Positions 25,850 through 44,537 of a stretch of DNA of 64,000 nucleotides are shown one piece after another. A program made the translations under genes and the position numbers. Numbering within the stretch: the stretch's first letter is position 1; each line of letters starts with the position of its first letter. Where the stretch lies: sequence record KX452698; one strand, written 5' to 3'. The notes beneath the pieces are model-generated. The model saw only the letters and a list, made by a program, of their open reading frames with translations. It was not told the origin of the DNA and did not search any database. Source of the DNA: Shigella phage KNP5.

Positions 25850-26814
25850 TGTATTCTTTAGAGGAATTTAATAACCAAGCAATAAACGCAGACTTCCAAC
25901 GTAATAATATGTTTAGCTGCGTTTTTGCCACTACTCCATCAACTAAAAGCTCATCATTAATAAGCTCAATTAGTAACTTTGCTTATAACAACTTGGGGCT
26001 AAATTCAGACTGGTTAGGATTGACTCAAGGCGATATTAATCAGGGAATTACCACGCTAATTACTGCTGGTACACAAAAACTGATAAGAAAATCAGGGGTT
26101 AGTAAATATCTTATTGGTGCAATGAGTCAACGCACAGTTCAAAGTTTATTAGGTTCATTTACAGTTGGTACATATTTAATTGACTTCTTTAACATGGCAT
26201 ATAACTCATCTGGATTGATGATATATTCTGTAAAAATGCCAGAGAATAGATTATCCTATGAAACTGACTGGAACTATAACTCTCCTAATATTCGTATAAC
26301 TGGGAGAGAATTAGACCCTTTGGTTATTTCATTTAGAATGGATTCAGAAGCTTGTAACTATCGTGCAATGCAAGACTGGGTTAACGCTGTTCAAGACCCA
26401 GTAACTGGACTGCGTGCTTTGCCACAAGATGTCGAGGCAGATATTCAGGTTAATCTTCATGCTCGTAATGGATTACCTCATACTGCAGTGATGTTCACCG
26501 GATGCATTCCAATGTCAGTGAGCGCTCCTGAGTTATCATATGATGGAGATAACCAAATAACTACGTTTGATGTTACTTTTGCGTATAGAGTCATGCAGGC
26601 TGGAGCAGTTGATAGACAAGCTGCCCTTGAATGGCTTGAATCTGCTGCTATAAACGGTATTCAAAGCGTTCTCGGAAATAGTGGAGGCGTTACTGGATTA
26701 TCTAATTCGCTTTCACGACTTAGTAGATTAGGAGGAACTGCTGGAAGCATTTCAAACATTAATACTATGACAGGAATTGTCAATTCGCAAAGTAAAATAT
26801 TAGGAGCAATATAA
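25849..26814 (+). CDS. 54: baseplate-tail tube initiator gp54
   Basis: 321-aa ORF; TAATG coupling. Confidence 0.92.
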   Translation: MYSLEEFNNQAINADFQRNNMFSCVFATTPSTKSSSLISSISNFAYNNLGLNSDWLGLTQGDINQGITTLITAGTQKLIRKSGVSKYLIGAMSQRTVQSLLGSFTVGTYLIDFFNMAYNSSGLMIYSVKMPENRLSYETDWNYNSPNIRITGRELDPLVISFRMDSEACNYRAMQDWVNAVQDPVTGLRALPQDVEADIQVNLHARNGLPHTAVMFTGCIPMSVSAPELSYDGDNQITTFDVTFAYRVMQAGAVDRQAALEWLESAAINGIQSVLGNSGGVTGLSNSLSRLSRLGGTAGSISNINTMTGIVNSQSKILGAI

Positions 26815-26817
26815 CAA

Positions 26818-26842
26818 TGGGGACCGAAAGGTCCCCATATTT
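26818..26842. terminator. bidirectional terminator between gene 54 and the minus-strand block
   Basis: GGGGACC-GAAA-GGTCCCC followed by ATATTTTTATTT. Confidence 0.75.
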
Positions 26843-27133
26843 TTATTTACGGAATGAAATAAAAGCAGCAACTGAAGCAACTAAACTGTCTTCAATATAA
26901 ACTTCAATTTTTACCGGAGCTTCTGACTCAAATTTACCTGTTACTACACCTTGGAAAATGCTTTCAGTCTGCTCTGGCTTTGAAAAATTTTCAGAAGGAA
27001 AAATTCCGAACTTTTTATCTGTTCCAAAAATTTTGATAAATTCATCGTAAACTGCTTCATTAAAAGCGTTATCAGCAGGAATAACGCCTTCAACTACAAG
27101 TTCTTGACCTAAAAAGCGTAAAGAAGATTTCAT
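26843..27133 (-). CDS. hypothetical protein downstream of alt genes
   Basis: 96-aa ORF with its own early promoter-leader cassette and SD GAGGA. Confidence 0.65.
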   Translation of the reverse strand: MKSSLRFLGQELVVEGVIPADNAFNEAVYDEFIKIFGTDKKFGIFPSENFSKPEQTESIFQGVVTGKFESEAPVKIEVYIEDSLVASVAAFISFRK

Positions 27134-27140
27134 TTTGTGT

Positions 27141-27194
27141 TCCTCATGTTATGTCAGTAAGACTACTATAACACAACACGAGGGACTTGTAAAC
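27141..27194 (-). repeat. 54-nt promoter-leader cassette, copy 1
   Basis: 53/54 identical to 42893-42946. Confidence 0.9.
27165..27194 (-). promoter_or_regulatory. early promoter (GTTTAC, 18 nt, TATAGT), cassette copy 1
   Basis: minus strand GTTTACAAGTCCCTCGTGTTGTGTTATAGT; -35 overlaps alt-A stop. Confidence 0.65.
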
Positions 27195-29251
27195 TACATC
27201 TTGAACTTTTTAGACATTCCGTTAATGTTAACCAAAGAAGCCAAGATTTGAGAAACTTCGTTTTCCTCTTCTTTTGATTCTTCTACAAGGAATTGATTAA
27301 ACCCAGCCATTGGACGAACTTCGCCAGTTTCCATTAGATGATCGCCATCATATACCGATTCTTCTAATTGTTCAGAAGGAGGAACGATTGTGCCTTCGAT
27401 TAGATACTTGTTATAAGCAGTTTCTTTCATCATGTACGTGCTTACTTTATTAATCTTCAACAAAATTCCACGTGGTAGAATAACTTCAGCTTCTGATGGA
27501 AATCCTGATAAATGACCTGGAACGATAACTTTGATTCGCTCAGCCCCTTTAATTACCATACCTACGCTAGTTTCAGCATCTTCATTCGCATAAGCAGAAT
27601 GACTGCCCATATGCATTAAATCTTCAGCATCAACAGAACCTTCTCCTTCACCAGAAAATACTGCGCCGGAATCATCTAGAGCCATATAGTTTTTACCATG
27701 CTCACCGAAGATATTTGGTTTAAGCGATGTGGATACGAAGTTCTTGAAATAGAACATTTTATTTTCAATATTATGGCGTAAAGTTTTAAAAGTAACTTCT
27801 TGTCCACGATAAAGCGTAGTTCCTGGAGGAAGAACTGATCCTTTGGCGAATGCAGAATCCAGAGTCTCGATGTGTTTAATAGCTCGTTCCATGTATTCTT
27901 CACGGGTAGAATCTGGTTTACCCAAGAGGAACGAGTTCATTTCAACATATGAATCTGCACAATAATCTTCAATTACATCAGACTCAGCCTGAGTCAGTCC
28001 TTTTGGAGTTACTTCGGTGCTTGCGTATTCATATGCCTGAGCAGCAGATTCATTAATCAATTTATAAATGCCATTCATGACAAATTGAATAATAGCTACC
28101 TTTTCGTCTGGCGTAGCTTTAGAACCTTTAACTAAATCATTGATAATTTTCTTAATAACATCAAAGCTATTAGAAATATTAATGTCAGCGAGATCGCTCA
28201 AAATTTTATCGGTTTTATAATCAAAGAATTCTTTATTCTTTAAATATTCTTGAGAACCTTGATATGTTATATCGCTCTGCAGTCTGATAGACGGATCACG
28301 TAAACGTGCATGGGCCAATGCAATATGATTTCGGAAGCTTTCTAGTTCATAATCGTTAGATTTAAAACGAGAAGCACTTCTCATACCACCAATAGCTCCT
28401 TTGCCGAAGTTTGAACCAATCTGAATAACGCCAGAGTTCATTGGTCCTTCTGCTTTATATACCGGAACTTTAGATTCAAACTCTTGATATTTCTTAGCAG
28501 CGAAGCTATCACCCTGAAGTGAAGCATCTACAGTAGAATATTGAGCTTGCGCTGCTAATCGACGACTAATTTTAGTTTTCTGAATAACAGCTTGATCCGT
28601 GCGCTTATCATTTTCTAAAGCAATAGAAGCAGCAACAGCAACAGCTTTAGGAACAGCATTACCTGTTTTGACATCTACATAAACATCACCAACCTTTGAT
28701 TCAACTTTTGTGAATAACTCAGTTGAAATAGGAGGTACACCTGGAATGTCTTCTAAATTGGCATTTTTACGGTAAACCATAATATATGCATACTTTTTAT
28801 CATAATCCCAGATTTCCTTTAAAAGAACATATCGACCTGCTCCTTTAGTACGTACTAAACGGTCAGCAATAACTTGCATTTGACGAGCAGCGCCATTTGT
28901 TTTACTTTTTAGTACGCGGAATAGGCATGCGTCAATTTTATACTGTTTCATTGTTTGAAGAGCAGTATCAAAAACCGCATTAATGACACCAATTGGATTT
29001 CCACCCAAGTTTTTAAGTTTAACTAATGATAGTTTTTCATTAACACCTATCATTACGATATGCATCATTTTATCACCTTGCTTAACGTTTTTATTTGTAT
29101 CACCGCCAGAGGTGTATGTACAAAATCTAAATCCAGGAAGCACGCTTTCTTCACCGGCTTGAATAGCAAAAATTTGAGGTATTTTATGCTTAGGATTTAA
29201 GTTAACAACCGGCGCCGAAGCGCCGTCAAATAATTCTGTAATAAGTTCCAT
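27194..29251 (-). CDS. Alt-like ADP-ribosyltransferase, paralogue A (divergent central region)
   Basis: 685-aa ORF; N-terminus MELITELFD; YRGQ, FVSTSL and SEAEVILPRG (R / STS / ExE context); SD AAGGA 3 nt after upstream stop. Confidence 0.85.
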   Translation of the reverse strand: MELITELFDGASAPVVNLNPKHKIPQIFAIQAGEESVLPGFRFCTYTSGGDTNKNVKQGDKMMHIVMIGVNEKLSLVKLKNLGGNPIGVINAVFDTALQTMKQYKIDACLFRVLKSKTNGAARQMQVIADRLVRTKGAGRYVLLKEIWDYDKKYAYIMVYRKNANLEDIPGVPPISTELFTKVESKVGDVYVDVKTGNAVPKAVAVAASIALENDKRTDQAVIQKTKISRRLAAQAQYSTVDASLQGDSFAAKKYQEFESKVPVYKAEGPMNSGVIQIGSNFGKGAIGGMRSASRFKSNDYELESFRNHIALAHARLRDPSIRLQSDITYQGSQEYLKNKEFFDYKTDKILSDLADINISNSFDVIKKIINDLVKGSKATPDEKVAIIQFVMNGIYKLINESAAQAYEYASTEVTPKGLTQAESDVIEDYCADSYVEMNSFLLGKPDSTREEYMERAIKHIETLDSAFAKGSVLPPGTTLYRGQEVTFKTLRHNIENKMFYFKNFVSTSLKPNIFGEHGKNYMALDDSGAVFSGEGEGSVDAEDLMHMGSHSAYANEDAETSVGMVIKGAERIKVIVPGHLSGFPSEAEVILPRGILLKINKVSTYMMKETAYNKYLIEGTIVPPSEQLEESVYDGDHLMETGEVRPMAGFNQFLVEESKEEENEVSQILASLVNINGMSKKFKM

Positions 29252-29254
29252 GAT

Positions 29255-31312
29255 TTATCCTTGAACGAACTTGTAAGGCATGTTTGCAATATCTATGCAA
29301 GATGCAATAATTCCAAGAGATGATTCTACTTTTTGTTTAACATTTGATGAAACAAATGATGCAAAATCAACTCTGTCTTCTATTTCAATATCACCTGTCA
29401 TTGCAACTACTTCACCGGTTTCCATTAGACGGTCACCGTCATAAATTACTGATTCGGTGAGTTCTTCTGTAGTCATAACTTCAGCTTGAATAAGCTTGTT
29501 GTTAGTTTTAGCTGTTCCATCATTGTAAGATGCGTCGGTTATTTTATTGACTTTGACCATCAATCCACGCGGCAAAATGACTTCCATTTCATTTGAAGGC
29601 GCTAAACTTCCACCTGGTAAAACAACGTTGACTTTATCAGCCCCAGTAATAACCCATCCAATTCCAACTAAATTATCGCTAGAATTAACAAGTCCTTCAT
29701 CGTTTTTATCGATAGAAATGTTTAGACGCTTTTCGTCTGGTAAAACACCCACAGCTGAATCAGTCATCCAAGTACCAAAAATGTTTGGATATAATGATGT
29801 TGATACAAAATTTCTAAAATAAAAAACTCGATTTTTTACCAATGCTTCATATATTGAAGGTAACATTCGCTGTGAACGATATAAAGTAATACCTTTTGGC
29901 AGTCGATCACCATTTTTAAAGGCTGAATCTAAATTATCGATGGCTTGTTCTATTTCTGGTGCTGTTAAAATACTTGTACGCTCATCTGGATTATATAATC
30001 CCAAAAGAGCATTATTCATGTCTACATATCCTGAACCTACGTATTCACGAATTCCGCGTTTTTGTGCCGGTGTGTATTTAGATGAATCTTTATTTTCGAC
30101 TATAGAATGCAATGACCATCCAACGGTAAGAGCATATCCACGTAATTCTCTTCGAATAATCTTTGTTTTTATTGCATTCCAAGAATTTTGCACTAACTCA
30201 TTCGCAGCATCTTGATTTAAATGCGAATGCTTGTTAATATTTCTTTCTAACCAAGCACCTTTATATTTTTCTAAAGTATCATCAACTATAGAAGCAATAG
30301 TTTCTAAAGTTTTTATTGAAGTAATAGATTCTTTTCGTAATCTTTCTAAAGCTTTATTTTTTATTTCTGCATTAACATCAGATTCTTTATCTTCAGGAAT
30401 TATAGAAGCTTCTCTGAATGCCATTCCAGCTGTAACACTATTAAGAGCATTCTCTAATGCAAATCCTGAAGTAGAAATAACAGTTAATTCGTTAGCATCA
30501 GAAATTAAAGGCGCGTCAGCGGGTTTATTTAATTCTGCTGCTGAAGCCTCAAATTTTTGAAACATTGGTGTTTCAAATCTAGAAGATTCTAATGATTGAC
30601 TTTGCGCAATTGCTCTACGGGAAATTTTAACTTTAACGATTACAGCTTGGTCAGAACGTTTATCGTTTTCTTGCGCAATAGATGCTGCAATTGCCTCATT
30701 TTTAGTTACTTGAGCTCCGGTATCTTTATTGATATAAACATCGCCGACCTTCGATTCAACTTTAGTAAAGAGCTCGGTACTAATTTCAGGAACTCCTGGA
30801 ATGTCTTCTAATGATACATTTTTGCGATGTATAAGAATATATGCATACTTTTTATCGTAATCCCAGAGTTCCTTAAGAAGGACGTATCTGCCACCTGAAC
30901 GACTACGGATAAGTCTATCAGCAATAAGTTGAATTTGACGAGCTTGACCAGCAGTTTTAGACTTAAGAATACGGAGCATACAGGCATCAATTTTATACTG
31001 ACGCATCGTCTGCATTGCAACAGTAAAAACTGAATTGATGTAATTAATTGGGCTTGGACCGAGACCTTTTAATTTAGCAATTGAGCCTTTAGCAGTTAAT
31101 GTAAAAGGAACAATATGCATCATTTTATCGCCCATCTTTAAATCGCGATTAGTATCACCTCCAGATGTATAGGTACATAAACGAAAGCCTGGCTGTTCAA
31201 TTGCGTCATCAACATGAACTGAAAAAATTTGTGGTATTTTCTTCTTTGGATTTAAGTTTGTAATCGGAAGAGTAGTATCTTCGTCAAATAATTCTGTAAT
31301 GAGTTCCATCAT
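29255..31312 (-). CDS. alt: Alt ADP-ribosyltransferase, paralogue B
   Basis: 685-aa ORF; MMELITELFD; YRSQ, FVSTSL, NEMEVILPRG; late promoter and SD GAGAGGA upstream. Confidence 0.88.
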   Translation of the reverse strand: MMELITELFDEDTTLPITNLNPKKKIPQIFSVHVDDAIEQPGFRLCTYTSGGDTNRDLKMGDKMMHIVPFTLTAKGSIAKLKGLGPSPINYINSVFTVAMQTMRQYKIDACMLRILKSKTAGQARQIQLIADRLIRSRSGGRYVLLKELWDYDKKYAYILIHRKNVSLEDIPGVPEISTELFTKVESKVGDVYINKDTGAQVTKNEAIAASIAQENDKRSDQAVIVKVKISRRAIAQSQSLESSRFETPMFQKFEASAAELNKPADAPLISDANELTVISTSGFALENALNSVTAGMAFREASIIPEDKESDVNAEIKNKALERLRKESITSIKTLETIASIVDDTLEKYKGAWLERNINKHSHLNQDAANELVQNSWNAIKTKIIRRELRGYALTVGWSLHSIVENKDSSKYTPAQKRGIREYVGSGYVDMNNALLGLYNPDERTSILTAPEIEQAIDNLDSAFKNGDRLPKGITLYRSQRMLPSIYEALVKNRVFYFRNFVSTSLYPNIFGTWMTDSAVGVLPDEKRLNISIDKNDEGLVNSSDNLVGIGWVITGADKVNVVLPGGSLAPSNEMEVILPRGLMVKVNKITDASYNDGTAKTNNKLIQAEVMTTEELTESVIYDGDRLMETGEVVAMTGDIEIEDRVDFASFVSSNVKQKVESSLGIIASCIDIANMPYKFVQG

Positions 31313-31332
31313 ATCCTCTCTAGTGTTTATTC

Positions 31333-31340
31333 TATTTATA
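31333..31340 (-). promoter_or_regulatory. late promoter TATAAATA (alt paralogue pair)
   Basis: plus-strand TATTTATA 21 nt upstream of alt ATG. Confidence 0.65.
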
Positions 31341-39592: not shown

Positions 39593-39622
39593 ATAATATC
39601 ACAACTCTACCATAAAGTAAAC
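39593..39622 (-). promoter_or_regulatory. early promoter (GTTTAC, 18 nt, TATTAT) with stem-loop
   Basis: minus strand GTTTAC...GGTAGAGTTGTGATATTATAGCTCTACC; inverted repeat GGTAGAG/CTCTACC. Confidence 0.5.
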
Positions 39623-42041: not shown

Positions 42042-42391
42042 TTAGAAAGGTCCTGGATGTCTTCTGCGAACTTGTTGAAGGAGTTGTTGATTTGTTTTTC
42101 AACCAATCCTGGCTTATGAGCCACCACATCCGCCTTCTTTGCGTCTTTGCGCAGTTTTTCATTTTCACGCTCAATAGCAGCAATTGCCTCACGATTTTTA
42201 TTATTCATCGCATCAATATAATTATACTGAATTCGCAAATTATTTAATGCTAAAGCGTTTTCATTGGCCGTTTTTGTAATTTCTACAACAGACGTTTCCA
42301 ATCTTTCAATTTTATTTTTTAAAATTAAAGAAGTTCCGCCCAATGCAATTACAATTAATAGCAAGCCTGCTGTTGTATTACTTAATTGCAT
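42038..42391 (-). CDS. inner-membrane spanin (Rz-like i-spanin)
   Basis: 117-aa ORF; N-terminal TMD (TAGLLLIVIALGGTSLIL) then coiled-coil-like periplasmic part. Confidence 0.7.
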   Translation of the reverse strand: MQLSNTTAGLLLIVIALGGTSLILKNKIERLETSVVEITKTANENALALNNLRIQYNYIDAMNNKNREAIAAIERENEKLRKDAKKADVVAHKPGLVEKQINNSFNKFAEDIQDLSK

Positions 42392-42888
42392 AAAGTTTTA
42401 ATAACCTCTATAATATCGTCTTGAGAAAGACCGTTAATTAAAATATGATGTTCAGCAGGAGATTTAGAAATTTTAAAACATGCCTCAACATCTTCTGCCA
42501 TATCCGATGCGCTACGATTTGGATTACTAATTCCAAGACGATGTTTTCCCGTTAAAGGATTGACGATGATATAGCATTTACAGTTGTTAATATGAACATT
42601 AGGTTGAGTCTGATTAATGAACACATCACAATCATATTTCGCAAGCTGATTTTCTAAAAAGACTTTCATCTCCTCAACCGCATCAGGAAGCATATCACGG
42701 GCTTGCTCAAGACGACGATTTCGATATTCTTTAATGGTCGTTTTCCGCTTTACTTGCTTAGCTAAATCTTTCTTAAGATCGGTGATATATCCAACTCGAC
42801 GATTTCCTTTAAATACAGAAATCCCATCTGTAGTATCACCGTATGCTTCAACGACCATCTCAGTAGTAATAAGCTGCAAATCCATCAT
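42382..42888 (-). CDS. alc: Alc-like protein (host transcription shutoff) by position
   Basis: 168-aa ORF adjacent to rnlA as in T4; preceded by early promoter cassette. Confidence 0.7.
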   Translation of the reverse strand: MMDLQLITTEMVVEAYGDTTDGISVFKGNRRVGYITDLKKDLAKQVKRKTTIKEYRNRRLEQARDMLPDAVEEMKVFLENQLAKYDCDVFINQTQPNVHINNCKCYIIVNPLTGKHRLGISNPNRSASDMAEDVEACFKISKSPAEHHILINGLSQDDIIEVIKTLCN

Positions 42889-42892
42889 AAAG

Positions 42893-42946
42893 TCCTCATG
42901 TTATGTCAGTAATACTACTATAACACAACACGAGGGACTTGTAAAC
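42893..42946 (-). repeat. 54-nt promoter-leader cassette, copy 2
   Basis: 53/54 identical to 27141-27194. Confidence 0.9.
42917..42946 (-). promoter_or_regulatory. early promoter (GTTTAC, 18 nt, TATAGT), cassette copy 2, upstream of alc
   Basis: identical to copy 1 except one base. Confidence 0.65.
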
Positions 42947-42949
42947 AGC

Positions 42950-44537
<1,588 letters not shown>

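Follow-up and report, generated by a model that had tools for sequence, protein, structure and literature searches.

Translation of the T4 genes e, soc, 49 and I-TevI is confined to late infection by a promoter placed within a potential RNA hairpin: the long read-through RNA folds the Shine-Dalgarno sequence (SD) and/or the AUG into a helix, and a late promoter TATAAATA in the region of the 5' arm gives a shorter, translatable RNA (PMC3014915). The reports on promoter-early stem-loop (PeSL) cassettes describe a stem-loop that lies between the -35 and -10 elements or overlaps the -10 box and is followed on its 3' side by an SD and a start codon; the promoter consensus of the T4/PST type is TTTACW-N17-TAYWAT, one such stem-loop lowers expression of a downstream lacZ about as much as a strong terminator, and the stem-loop is proposed as an attenuator with the cassette serving as a site of homologous exchange (Arbiol et al. 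2010, PMC2839356; Comeau et al. 2014, PMC4122927). The element considered here is a 54-nt intergenic cassette at positions 27141-27194 (minus strand) of a 64,000-nt stretch of DNA from Shigella phage KNP5 (record KX452698), the whole of which is termed the window, with a second copy at 42893-42946. It is predicted to combine a T4-type early promoter with an RNA hairpin and precedes the genes alt.-3 and alc. The favored reading, with a probability of about 0.55, is a promoter-in-hairpin cassette that would mask the ribosome-binding sites of both genes in read-through RNA, would have been copied from alc to alt.-3 and would since have undergone conversion between its copies.

The cassette and its predicted hairpin

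The sequences at 27141-27194 (copy 1) and 42893-42946 (copy 2) are identical at 53 of 54 positions, in agreement with the first-pass annotation of this DNA, which had reported a recurring string with one mismatch; the window has no third copy, and none is found in any of 100 shuffles. The functional strand is the minus strand, and in the cassette numbering used below, where the -10 element occupies positions 25-30 and the predicted transcription start is position 37, the sole mismatch is C34A in the hairpin loop of copy 2. Copy 1 occupies the whole 60-nt intergenic gap between a full-length alt paralog (685 amino acids; 27194-29251, minus strand) and a 96-amino acid open reading frame identified as T4 alt.-3 (26843-27133, minus strand), and copy 2 occupies the whole 61-nt gap between rnlA (gene 63; 42950-44074, minus strand) and alc, encoding the inhibitor of host transcription (42382-42888, minus strand). 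The end of copy 1 is 7 nt from the alt.-3 ATG and that of copy 2 is 4 nt from the alc ATG, with the upstream stop codons placed 0 and 4 nt, respectively, from the -35 elements. The copies are direct repeats 15.7 kb apart flanking the segment alc-pseT-cd-31-rIII-30-alt-alt paralog, a gene order that confirms the flanking arrangement described earlier. The window belongs to the genus Tequatrovirus and has 99.9-100% identity to Escherichia phage KNP1.

Each copy reads GTTTAC, an 18-nt spacer, TATAGT, 19 nt and GAGGA on the minus strand, and the description of a complete early promoter and SD module before two unrelated genes, alt.-3 and alc, is upheld. The consensus scan places TTTACA-17-TATAGT at both copies with 10 of 12 matches and a TG extended -10 (TGnTATAGT), and both are predicted from sequence to be sigma-70-type T4 early promoters. 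In copy 1 the -35 element spans 27189-27194, its G serving also as the final base of the TAG at which the alt paralog ends, and the -10 element, preceded by TGn and located within the hairpin, spans 27165-27170 with the predicted start at an A seven nt past it (27158). The corresponding positions in copy 2 are 42941-42946, 42917-42922 and 42910 (all minus strand, both starts being placed from the position of the -10). As regards an AT-rich, UP-like tract such as PeSL cassettes have, the sequence upstream of the -35 is coding, with AAAAATTATAAAAAATTTAT present about 25-45 nt upstream in copy 2 and only TCTAAAAAG in copy 1. The GTTTAC -35, the TG before the -10, the 17/18-nt spacing and the early downstream genes are features held in common with T4 early promoters in general, whereas ordinary early promoters share the consensus only and here the region from the spacer to the SD is a conserved unit. 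The 14 early-promoter-like sites of the window have a mean pairwise identity of 19.7/54 (standard deviation 5.3) with a maximum of 29/54, compared with 53/54 for the cassette pair. The earlier statement that the remaining early promoters have no more than the consensus hexamers in common agrees with this ceiling, and an identity of >50 nt common to all early promoters, which the first-pass annotation had named as the observation that would refute it, is not seen.

A single 18-bp hairpin of -22 kcal/mol is predicted for the sense (minus-strand) 54-mer (z = -5.4, 0/200 shuffles; z = -5.39 at copy 1 and -5.10 at copy 2), and it extends from the promoter spacer CCCTCGTGTTGTGTT to the SD GACATAACATGAGG. 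The 5' arm of the main stem, positions 12-25 (CCUCGUGUUGUGUU), is formed by the -35/-10 spacer with the first -10 base, contains the anti-SD CCUC and pairs with positions 40-53 (GACAUAACAUGAGG), which are leader sequence including four of the five SD bases (GAGG). At the hairpin tip a further 4 bp (28-31 with 36-39) close a 4-nt loop, and the -10 hexamer and the predicted start are enclosed by the structure. In the fold of copy 1 the main stem arms are at 27170-27183, upstream of the predicted start, and 27142-27155, with the SD GAGGA at 27141-27145; in that of copy 2 the arms are at 42922-42940 and 42890-42907, with the SD GAGGA at 42893-42897 (all minus strand). Each locus extends the stem with its own flanks, by AAGUCC/GGACUU at alc, where C13 is bulged and the 3' arm includes a locus-specific CUU, and by GUU/AAC at alt.-3 in the C11T haplotype. 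The "hairpin-prone leader" of the first-pass annotation is no more than the tip of the 18-bp structure. For the antisense strand the fold reaches only -12.8 kcal/mol compared with -22 kcal/mol for the sense strand because three stem pairs are G.U, and this asymmetry in the modeled folds points to a structure at the level of the sense RNA rather than a DNA palindrome. Rfam covariance models give no relevant match around either copy at E <= 1.

The 5' arm of the complete hairpin (positions 12-31) lies upstream of the predicted start at position 37, so the hairpin is possible only in read-through RNA and the predicted own transcript is without the 5' arm. The computed cost of opening the region from the SD to the AUG is 10-12.7 kcal/mol in RNA entering from 150 nt upstream, where the probability of GAGG being unpaired is about 0, and 1.8-3.7 kcal/mol when the RNA begins at position 37. 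Folded by itself, the sequence that follows the -10 is unstructured (-2.5 and -0.8 kcal/mol, z about 0). The SD is placed within a hairpin in only these two of the five good early promoter-gene units in the window. Two of the remaining three, with minus-strand -35 elements starting at 39622 and 35539, have a hairpin around the -10 that ends 9-17 nt before the SD, and one is without a hairpin. The inverted repeats around the -10 at 39622 and 35539 are GGTAGAG..CTCTACC and GGTACAGG..CCTGTACC, the second being palindromic enough to give a promoter score on both strands (35490, plus strand).

RNA entering from upstream, with rnlA as its source at copy 2 and the alt genes with their late promoter at copy 1, would carry both arms and hold the ribosome-binding site of alc or alt.-3 locked in the 18-bp helix. 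RNA from the cassette's own promoter would lack the 5' arm and be translatable, and Alc and Alt.-3 would be made only while early promoters fire. A late-promoter consensus TATAAATA is present upstream of alt (31333-31340, minus strand), and a scan finds none within either cassette. In the scanned region 26700-27700, with 27700-31333 lying outside the scan, no terminator-like site is present other than a bidirectional hairpin at 26817-26838, located between the convergent genes 54 and alt.-3, which would end the transcription unit. This hairpin is GC-rich and palindromic, with 9 bp and a terminator score on both strands. The T4 omics data class alc and alt.-3 both as early RNA and early protein, rnlA as early RNA and late protein, and alt as middle RNA and late protein, a timing that is consistent with early-only gating without proving it. 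The early class of alc and alt.-3 likewise agrees with activity of the cassette promoters.

The likeness to e, soc, 49 and I-TevI is that the SD is predicted to be paired in the long transcript and that the own-promoter RNA lacks the 5' arm. The arrangement differs in that the internal promoter is an early sigma-70 promoter and the outcome is early-only, a temporal mirror image of the late-only genes, and in that masking is here a prediction; alc and alt.-3 are not among the examples of hairpins at ribosome-binding sites in the review of Uzan and Miller (2010) (PMC3014915). If the gating is true, the classic hairpin/promoter switches of T4, which act late only, gain an early-only counterpart, and there would be an explanation for how Alc, needed only at takeover, is kept out of later read-through translation. 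The components are already known and nothing is overturned.

The cassette fits the published PeSL class, to which the first-pass annotation had likened it: it has a sigma-70-type promoter, a stem-loop overlapping the -10, and at its 3' end an SD followed by a start codon. An upstream stop codon, early promoter, stem-loop over the -10, SD and start codon are all contained between the two genes; the promoter of both copies (TTTACA-17-TATAGT with TG, 10/12) becomes TATAAT at its -10 in the G29A haplotype, the 18-bp hairpin encloses the -10, and the stop-to-start spacing is as given above. Like PeSLs, the cassette is repeated within the genome, adjoins plastic loci and is a proposed substrate for homologous exchange, for which there is the indirect evidence of identical multi-SNP (single-nucleotide polymorphism) haplotypes and 7 shared variants at the two loci. 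It differs from the published cassettes, which form dense arrays in hyperplastic regions, in having only two copies per genome, separated by 15.7 kb and with essential genes between them; the neighboring loci do vary (alt paralog versus remnants, and the G28 duplication). The KNP5 cassette has a long, AU/GU-rich stem in which the SD is paired, compared with stems of the form GGGG...CCCC in RB49 and phi1, and the published role is transcription attenuation and not masking of the ribosome-binding site. A concrete function would be provided for at least one PeSL-type stem-loop if the gating proved true.

Homologous leaders in other genera

Comparison of the rnlA-alc intergenic region across 17 Tevenvirinae lineages shows a hairpin enclosing the -10 and the start site upstream of alc in 13 lineages. 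In 11 of the 17 the anti-SD 5' arm comes directly after the -35 and the 3' arm ends in the SD, with the sequences of the arms differing between lineages (for example AUCUCCGUUU / AAACGGAGAU, UCCUCAUUUCGUU / AACGAAAUGAGGA, AACCUCUCAUUUUUA / UGAAAAUGAGAGGUU and UCUCCAUUUGGUU / AACCAAAUGGAGA). The MAFFT alignment of the alc leaders is not structure-aware, and a test of duplex energies within and across lineages was used instead: arms from the same lineage pair at a mean of -14.8 kcal/mol compared with -9.3 kcal/mol for cross-lineage arms, with 0/20000 permutations as good. RNAalifold on the structure-naive alignment gives 8 consensus spacer-to-SD pairs, 7 with compensatory changes. Diversity of the 54-mer within Tequatrovirus is low (96% mean column identity, 23 distinct haplotypes), with the spacer and leader as conserved as the hexamers; stem changes mostly keep pairing (CG to UG, GU to AU, GU to GC and UG to UA), and one true compensatory pair is present, C15-G50 to U-A.

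Four other genera possess alt.-3, and its promoter in each contains a short spacer palindrome (AAGGA-type loop) with stems that covary and with no pairing to the SD. These genera are Gaprivervirus, Mosigvirus, Gelderlandvirus and Dhakavirus, with the stems GCAC/GUGC, ACACAU/AUGUGU, ACAUCC/GGAUGU and ACCACA/UGUGGU; the palindromes are at L011 3110-3160, L012 4150-4190, L013 5140-5175 and L015 1140-1170 (minus strands). Comparison of the homologous intergenic regions, the check proposed by the first-pass annotation, finds the architecture kept upstream of alc in 11/17 lineages and upstream of alt.-3 only in Tequatrovirus. With the alc-type hairpin absent at alt.-3 outside Tequatrovirus, parsimony gives a direction of copying from alc to alt.-3, and the cassette probably belonged to alc originally and reached the alt.-3 promoter by copying in the Tequatrovirus ancestor. 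In that event a whole promoter and translation gate would be movable to another gene as a 54-nt unit.

Age of the duplication and probable exchange between copies

A blastn search with the 54-mer identifies 498 phage records and 995 places, all in Tequatrovirus, with, in nearly every case, two copies per genome. In T4, too, the 54-mer is present at both loci and a single mismatch occurs, at another position than in the KNP5 pair; the two-copy arrangement is also found in T6. This genus-wide state dates the duplication at least to the Tequatrovirus ancestor on the distribution of the sequence, and the "recent duplication" of the first-pass annotation does not stand against a two-copy state shared by about 498 records of the genus, T4 and T6 among them. 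Phage G28 has three copies by virtue of a 351-bp tandem duplication (NC_054916; L063 19676-20080) that takes in the cassette with the 3' end of rnlA on one side and the first 144 nt of alc on the other, the junction being located within alc and rnlA and not in the cassette. An independent duplicate of the alc N-terminal region, ORF243c, is present upstream of alc in VR7 (L011 18011-18244).

An exact-pattern scan of IMG/VR and a degenerate metagenome scan return only 6 and 9 loci, which restricts the population data to the cassette pairs of 19 genomes together with two haplotype-specific BLAST counts. No fixed difference between the loci is present among the 19 genomes. The G29A+G32A haplotype is carried by the alt.-3 copy in P8, HZ_ZJUN4 and OBRH and by both loci in PP01, UFV10 and G28, where all three copies share one haplotype, and a search for it with exact flanks gives 5 records for the alc locus and 13 for that of alt.-3. 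G32A+C34T is found in the alc copy of SA20RB and the alt.-3 copy of Shfl2, and T27C, G16A, C15T and T33A are each found at both loci. There are 13 variants at alc and 12 at alt.-3, with 7 common to both (P = 2e-6 when every site-allele is taken to be equally available, and 0.004 when each site is allowed a single allele). The mean distance between the two copies within a genome is 2.26, compared with 2.3 and 2.9 for the same locus across genomes and 2.82 for different loci in different genomes, the excess of the last over the within-genome value having P = 0.008 in a permutation test that is not corrected for phylogeny.

The same multi-SNP haplotypes at both loci in different genomes point to ectopic gene conversion, which would homogenize the copies without crossover, and they lend support to the gene conversion raised in the first-pass annotation. 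Parallel selection may be an alternative source of shared variants, for example of G29A, which creates the consensus TATAAT. Concerted evolution by ectopic gene conversion is known for bacterial tufA/tufB, and the cassette is alike in the lack of fixed locus differences and in polymorphisms and haplotypes common to both loci. It differs in that the KNP5 tract is only 54 nt and non-coding, near the T4 recombination minimum, for which the cited figure is about 50 bp of homology. The two-copy system would be a compact natural case for ectopic gene conversion at minimal T4-type homology, with about 500 genomes available. The more extended proposal, in which an early-only translational gate of alc, covarying in most Tevenvirinae genera, was transplanted to alt.-3 and the copies were converted across 15.7 kb of essential genes, is considered a little short of an even chance.

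Alternative readings and neighboring features

Several observations weigh against the masking and exchange reading. The alc hairpin ends just before the SD in L038/L050, L043 and Providencia PSTCR6, no long hairpin but only a short spacer palindrome is present in Mosigvirus and L051, and the alc leader of the Gaprivervirus VR7 has a different arrangement with no long hairpin, from which it follows that SD masking is not universal. Covariation within Tequatrovirus is not significant alone (1 compensatory pair, 76/500 shuffles), the variation being too low. Weak local pairing of the SD persists in the own-promoter alt.-3 leader, and ribosomes terminating on the upstream open reading frame could partly melt the stem, those on rnlA terminating 4 nt upstream of the cassette and those on the alt paralog on its first base. 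For the exchange, the probability of the shared variants is 0.16 if only 30 site-alleles are free, and shared single SNPs could then be recurrent mutations. Neither a T4 start-site map nor a study of the alc promoter was found in the searchable full-text literature.

The same lineages in which the hairpin stops short of the SD, together with the promoters at 39622 and 35539, favor an attenuator over masking. On this PeSL-based account the hairpin attenuates or terminates transcription arriving from upstream, or serves in the processing or 3' stability of that RNA, and insulates alc and alt.-3, with the pairing to the SD being incidental. The effect of the published stem-loops on lacZ agrees with such a role, as does the record of SA20RB (OL960581; L017 902-951), where the alt.-3 copy is annotated as a rho-independent terminator by WebGeSTer. 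The stem is, however, without a U-tract and neither copy contains a terminator-like site in the consensus scan; the 3' arm includes the SD in 11/17 lineages, matching an anti-SD in the 5' arm, and the stem is extended across the SD by locus-specific sequence. Masking is favored because of this systematic anti-SD/SD pairing and the missing U-tract, and the attenuator is considered unlikely while deserving serious consideration. An intrinsic (rho-independent) terminator in the strict sense was rejected on the consensus, the nearest terminator-like site being that at 26817-26838. Selection of the cassette as a portable recombination site, serving modular shuffling and the formation of mini-circles with regulation secondary, has a precedent in the PeSL pairs that yield mini-circles and indels in RB49 and phi1, and the neighbors are plastic, with the alt paralog full-length here versus remnants in T4 and alc partly duplicated in G28 and VR7. 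Against this, genomes carry only two copies across about 498 records, a crossover would delete or duplicate about 15.7 kb including genes 30 and 31, which are essential in T4, the G28 junction is outside the cassette, and recombination leaves the cross-genus covariation of the hairpin unexplained, making this explanation improbable.

A neutral relic of the duplication, its likeness due to promoter and SD constraint and its hairpin to chance, would account for the low diversity of the 54-mer in Tequatrovirus and the non-significant covariation within the genus. It is very improbable in view of the fold z-score of -5.4, the same architecture with different sequences in many genera, the spacer and leader being as conserved as the hexamers though a promoter would not constrain them, and the multi-SNP haplotypes common to both loci. 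The inverted repeat could also be read as a DNA operator through which a dimeric phage or host regulator switches off both promoters; it spans the -10 at two co-regulated early genes, and the shut-off of T4 early promoters is not fully understood (PMC3014915). The three G.U stem positions make an imperfect DNA palindrome, as reflected in the weaker antisense fold, and the arm sequences vary freely across genera with pairing kept, as is usual for RNA structure rather than for a protein site, leaving the operator with hardly any credibility.

A full-text search with parts of the cassette sequence gives one match, an unrelated preprint on a Staphylococcus aureus small RNA. Both T4 sites are likely already cataloged as promoters or PeSLs because T4 has been so thoroughly studied.

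Within the leader, the ATG in CATGAGGA opens a short upstream open reading frame of 4-5 codons, encoding MRNTK at alt.-3 (27130-27147) and MRTL at alc (42884-42899, both minus strand), whose TGA overlaps the main ATG as ATGA. The four other genera show this arrangement in their alt.-3 leaders too, and not in their alc leaders. Just upstream of copy 2, a stem-loop UAUCC-CAGAA-GGAUA is located at the end of the rnlA coding sequence (42954-42968, minus strand) and is kept in the Tequatrovirus loci examined. On the upstream side of copy 1, two full-length tandem alt genes of 685 amino acids each are present at 27194-29251 and 29255-31312 (minus strand), with the repeat families D1/D7/D9/D13 spaced 2055-2091 nt apart. 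The second alt gene is represented in T4 by the remnants alt.-1 and alt.-2 only and QL01 has three alt genes, so the alt locus beside copy 1 is variable in copy number.

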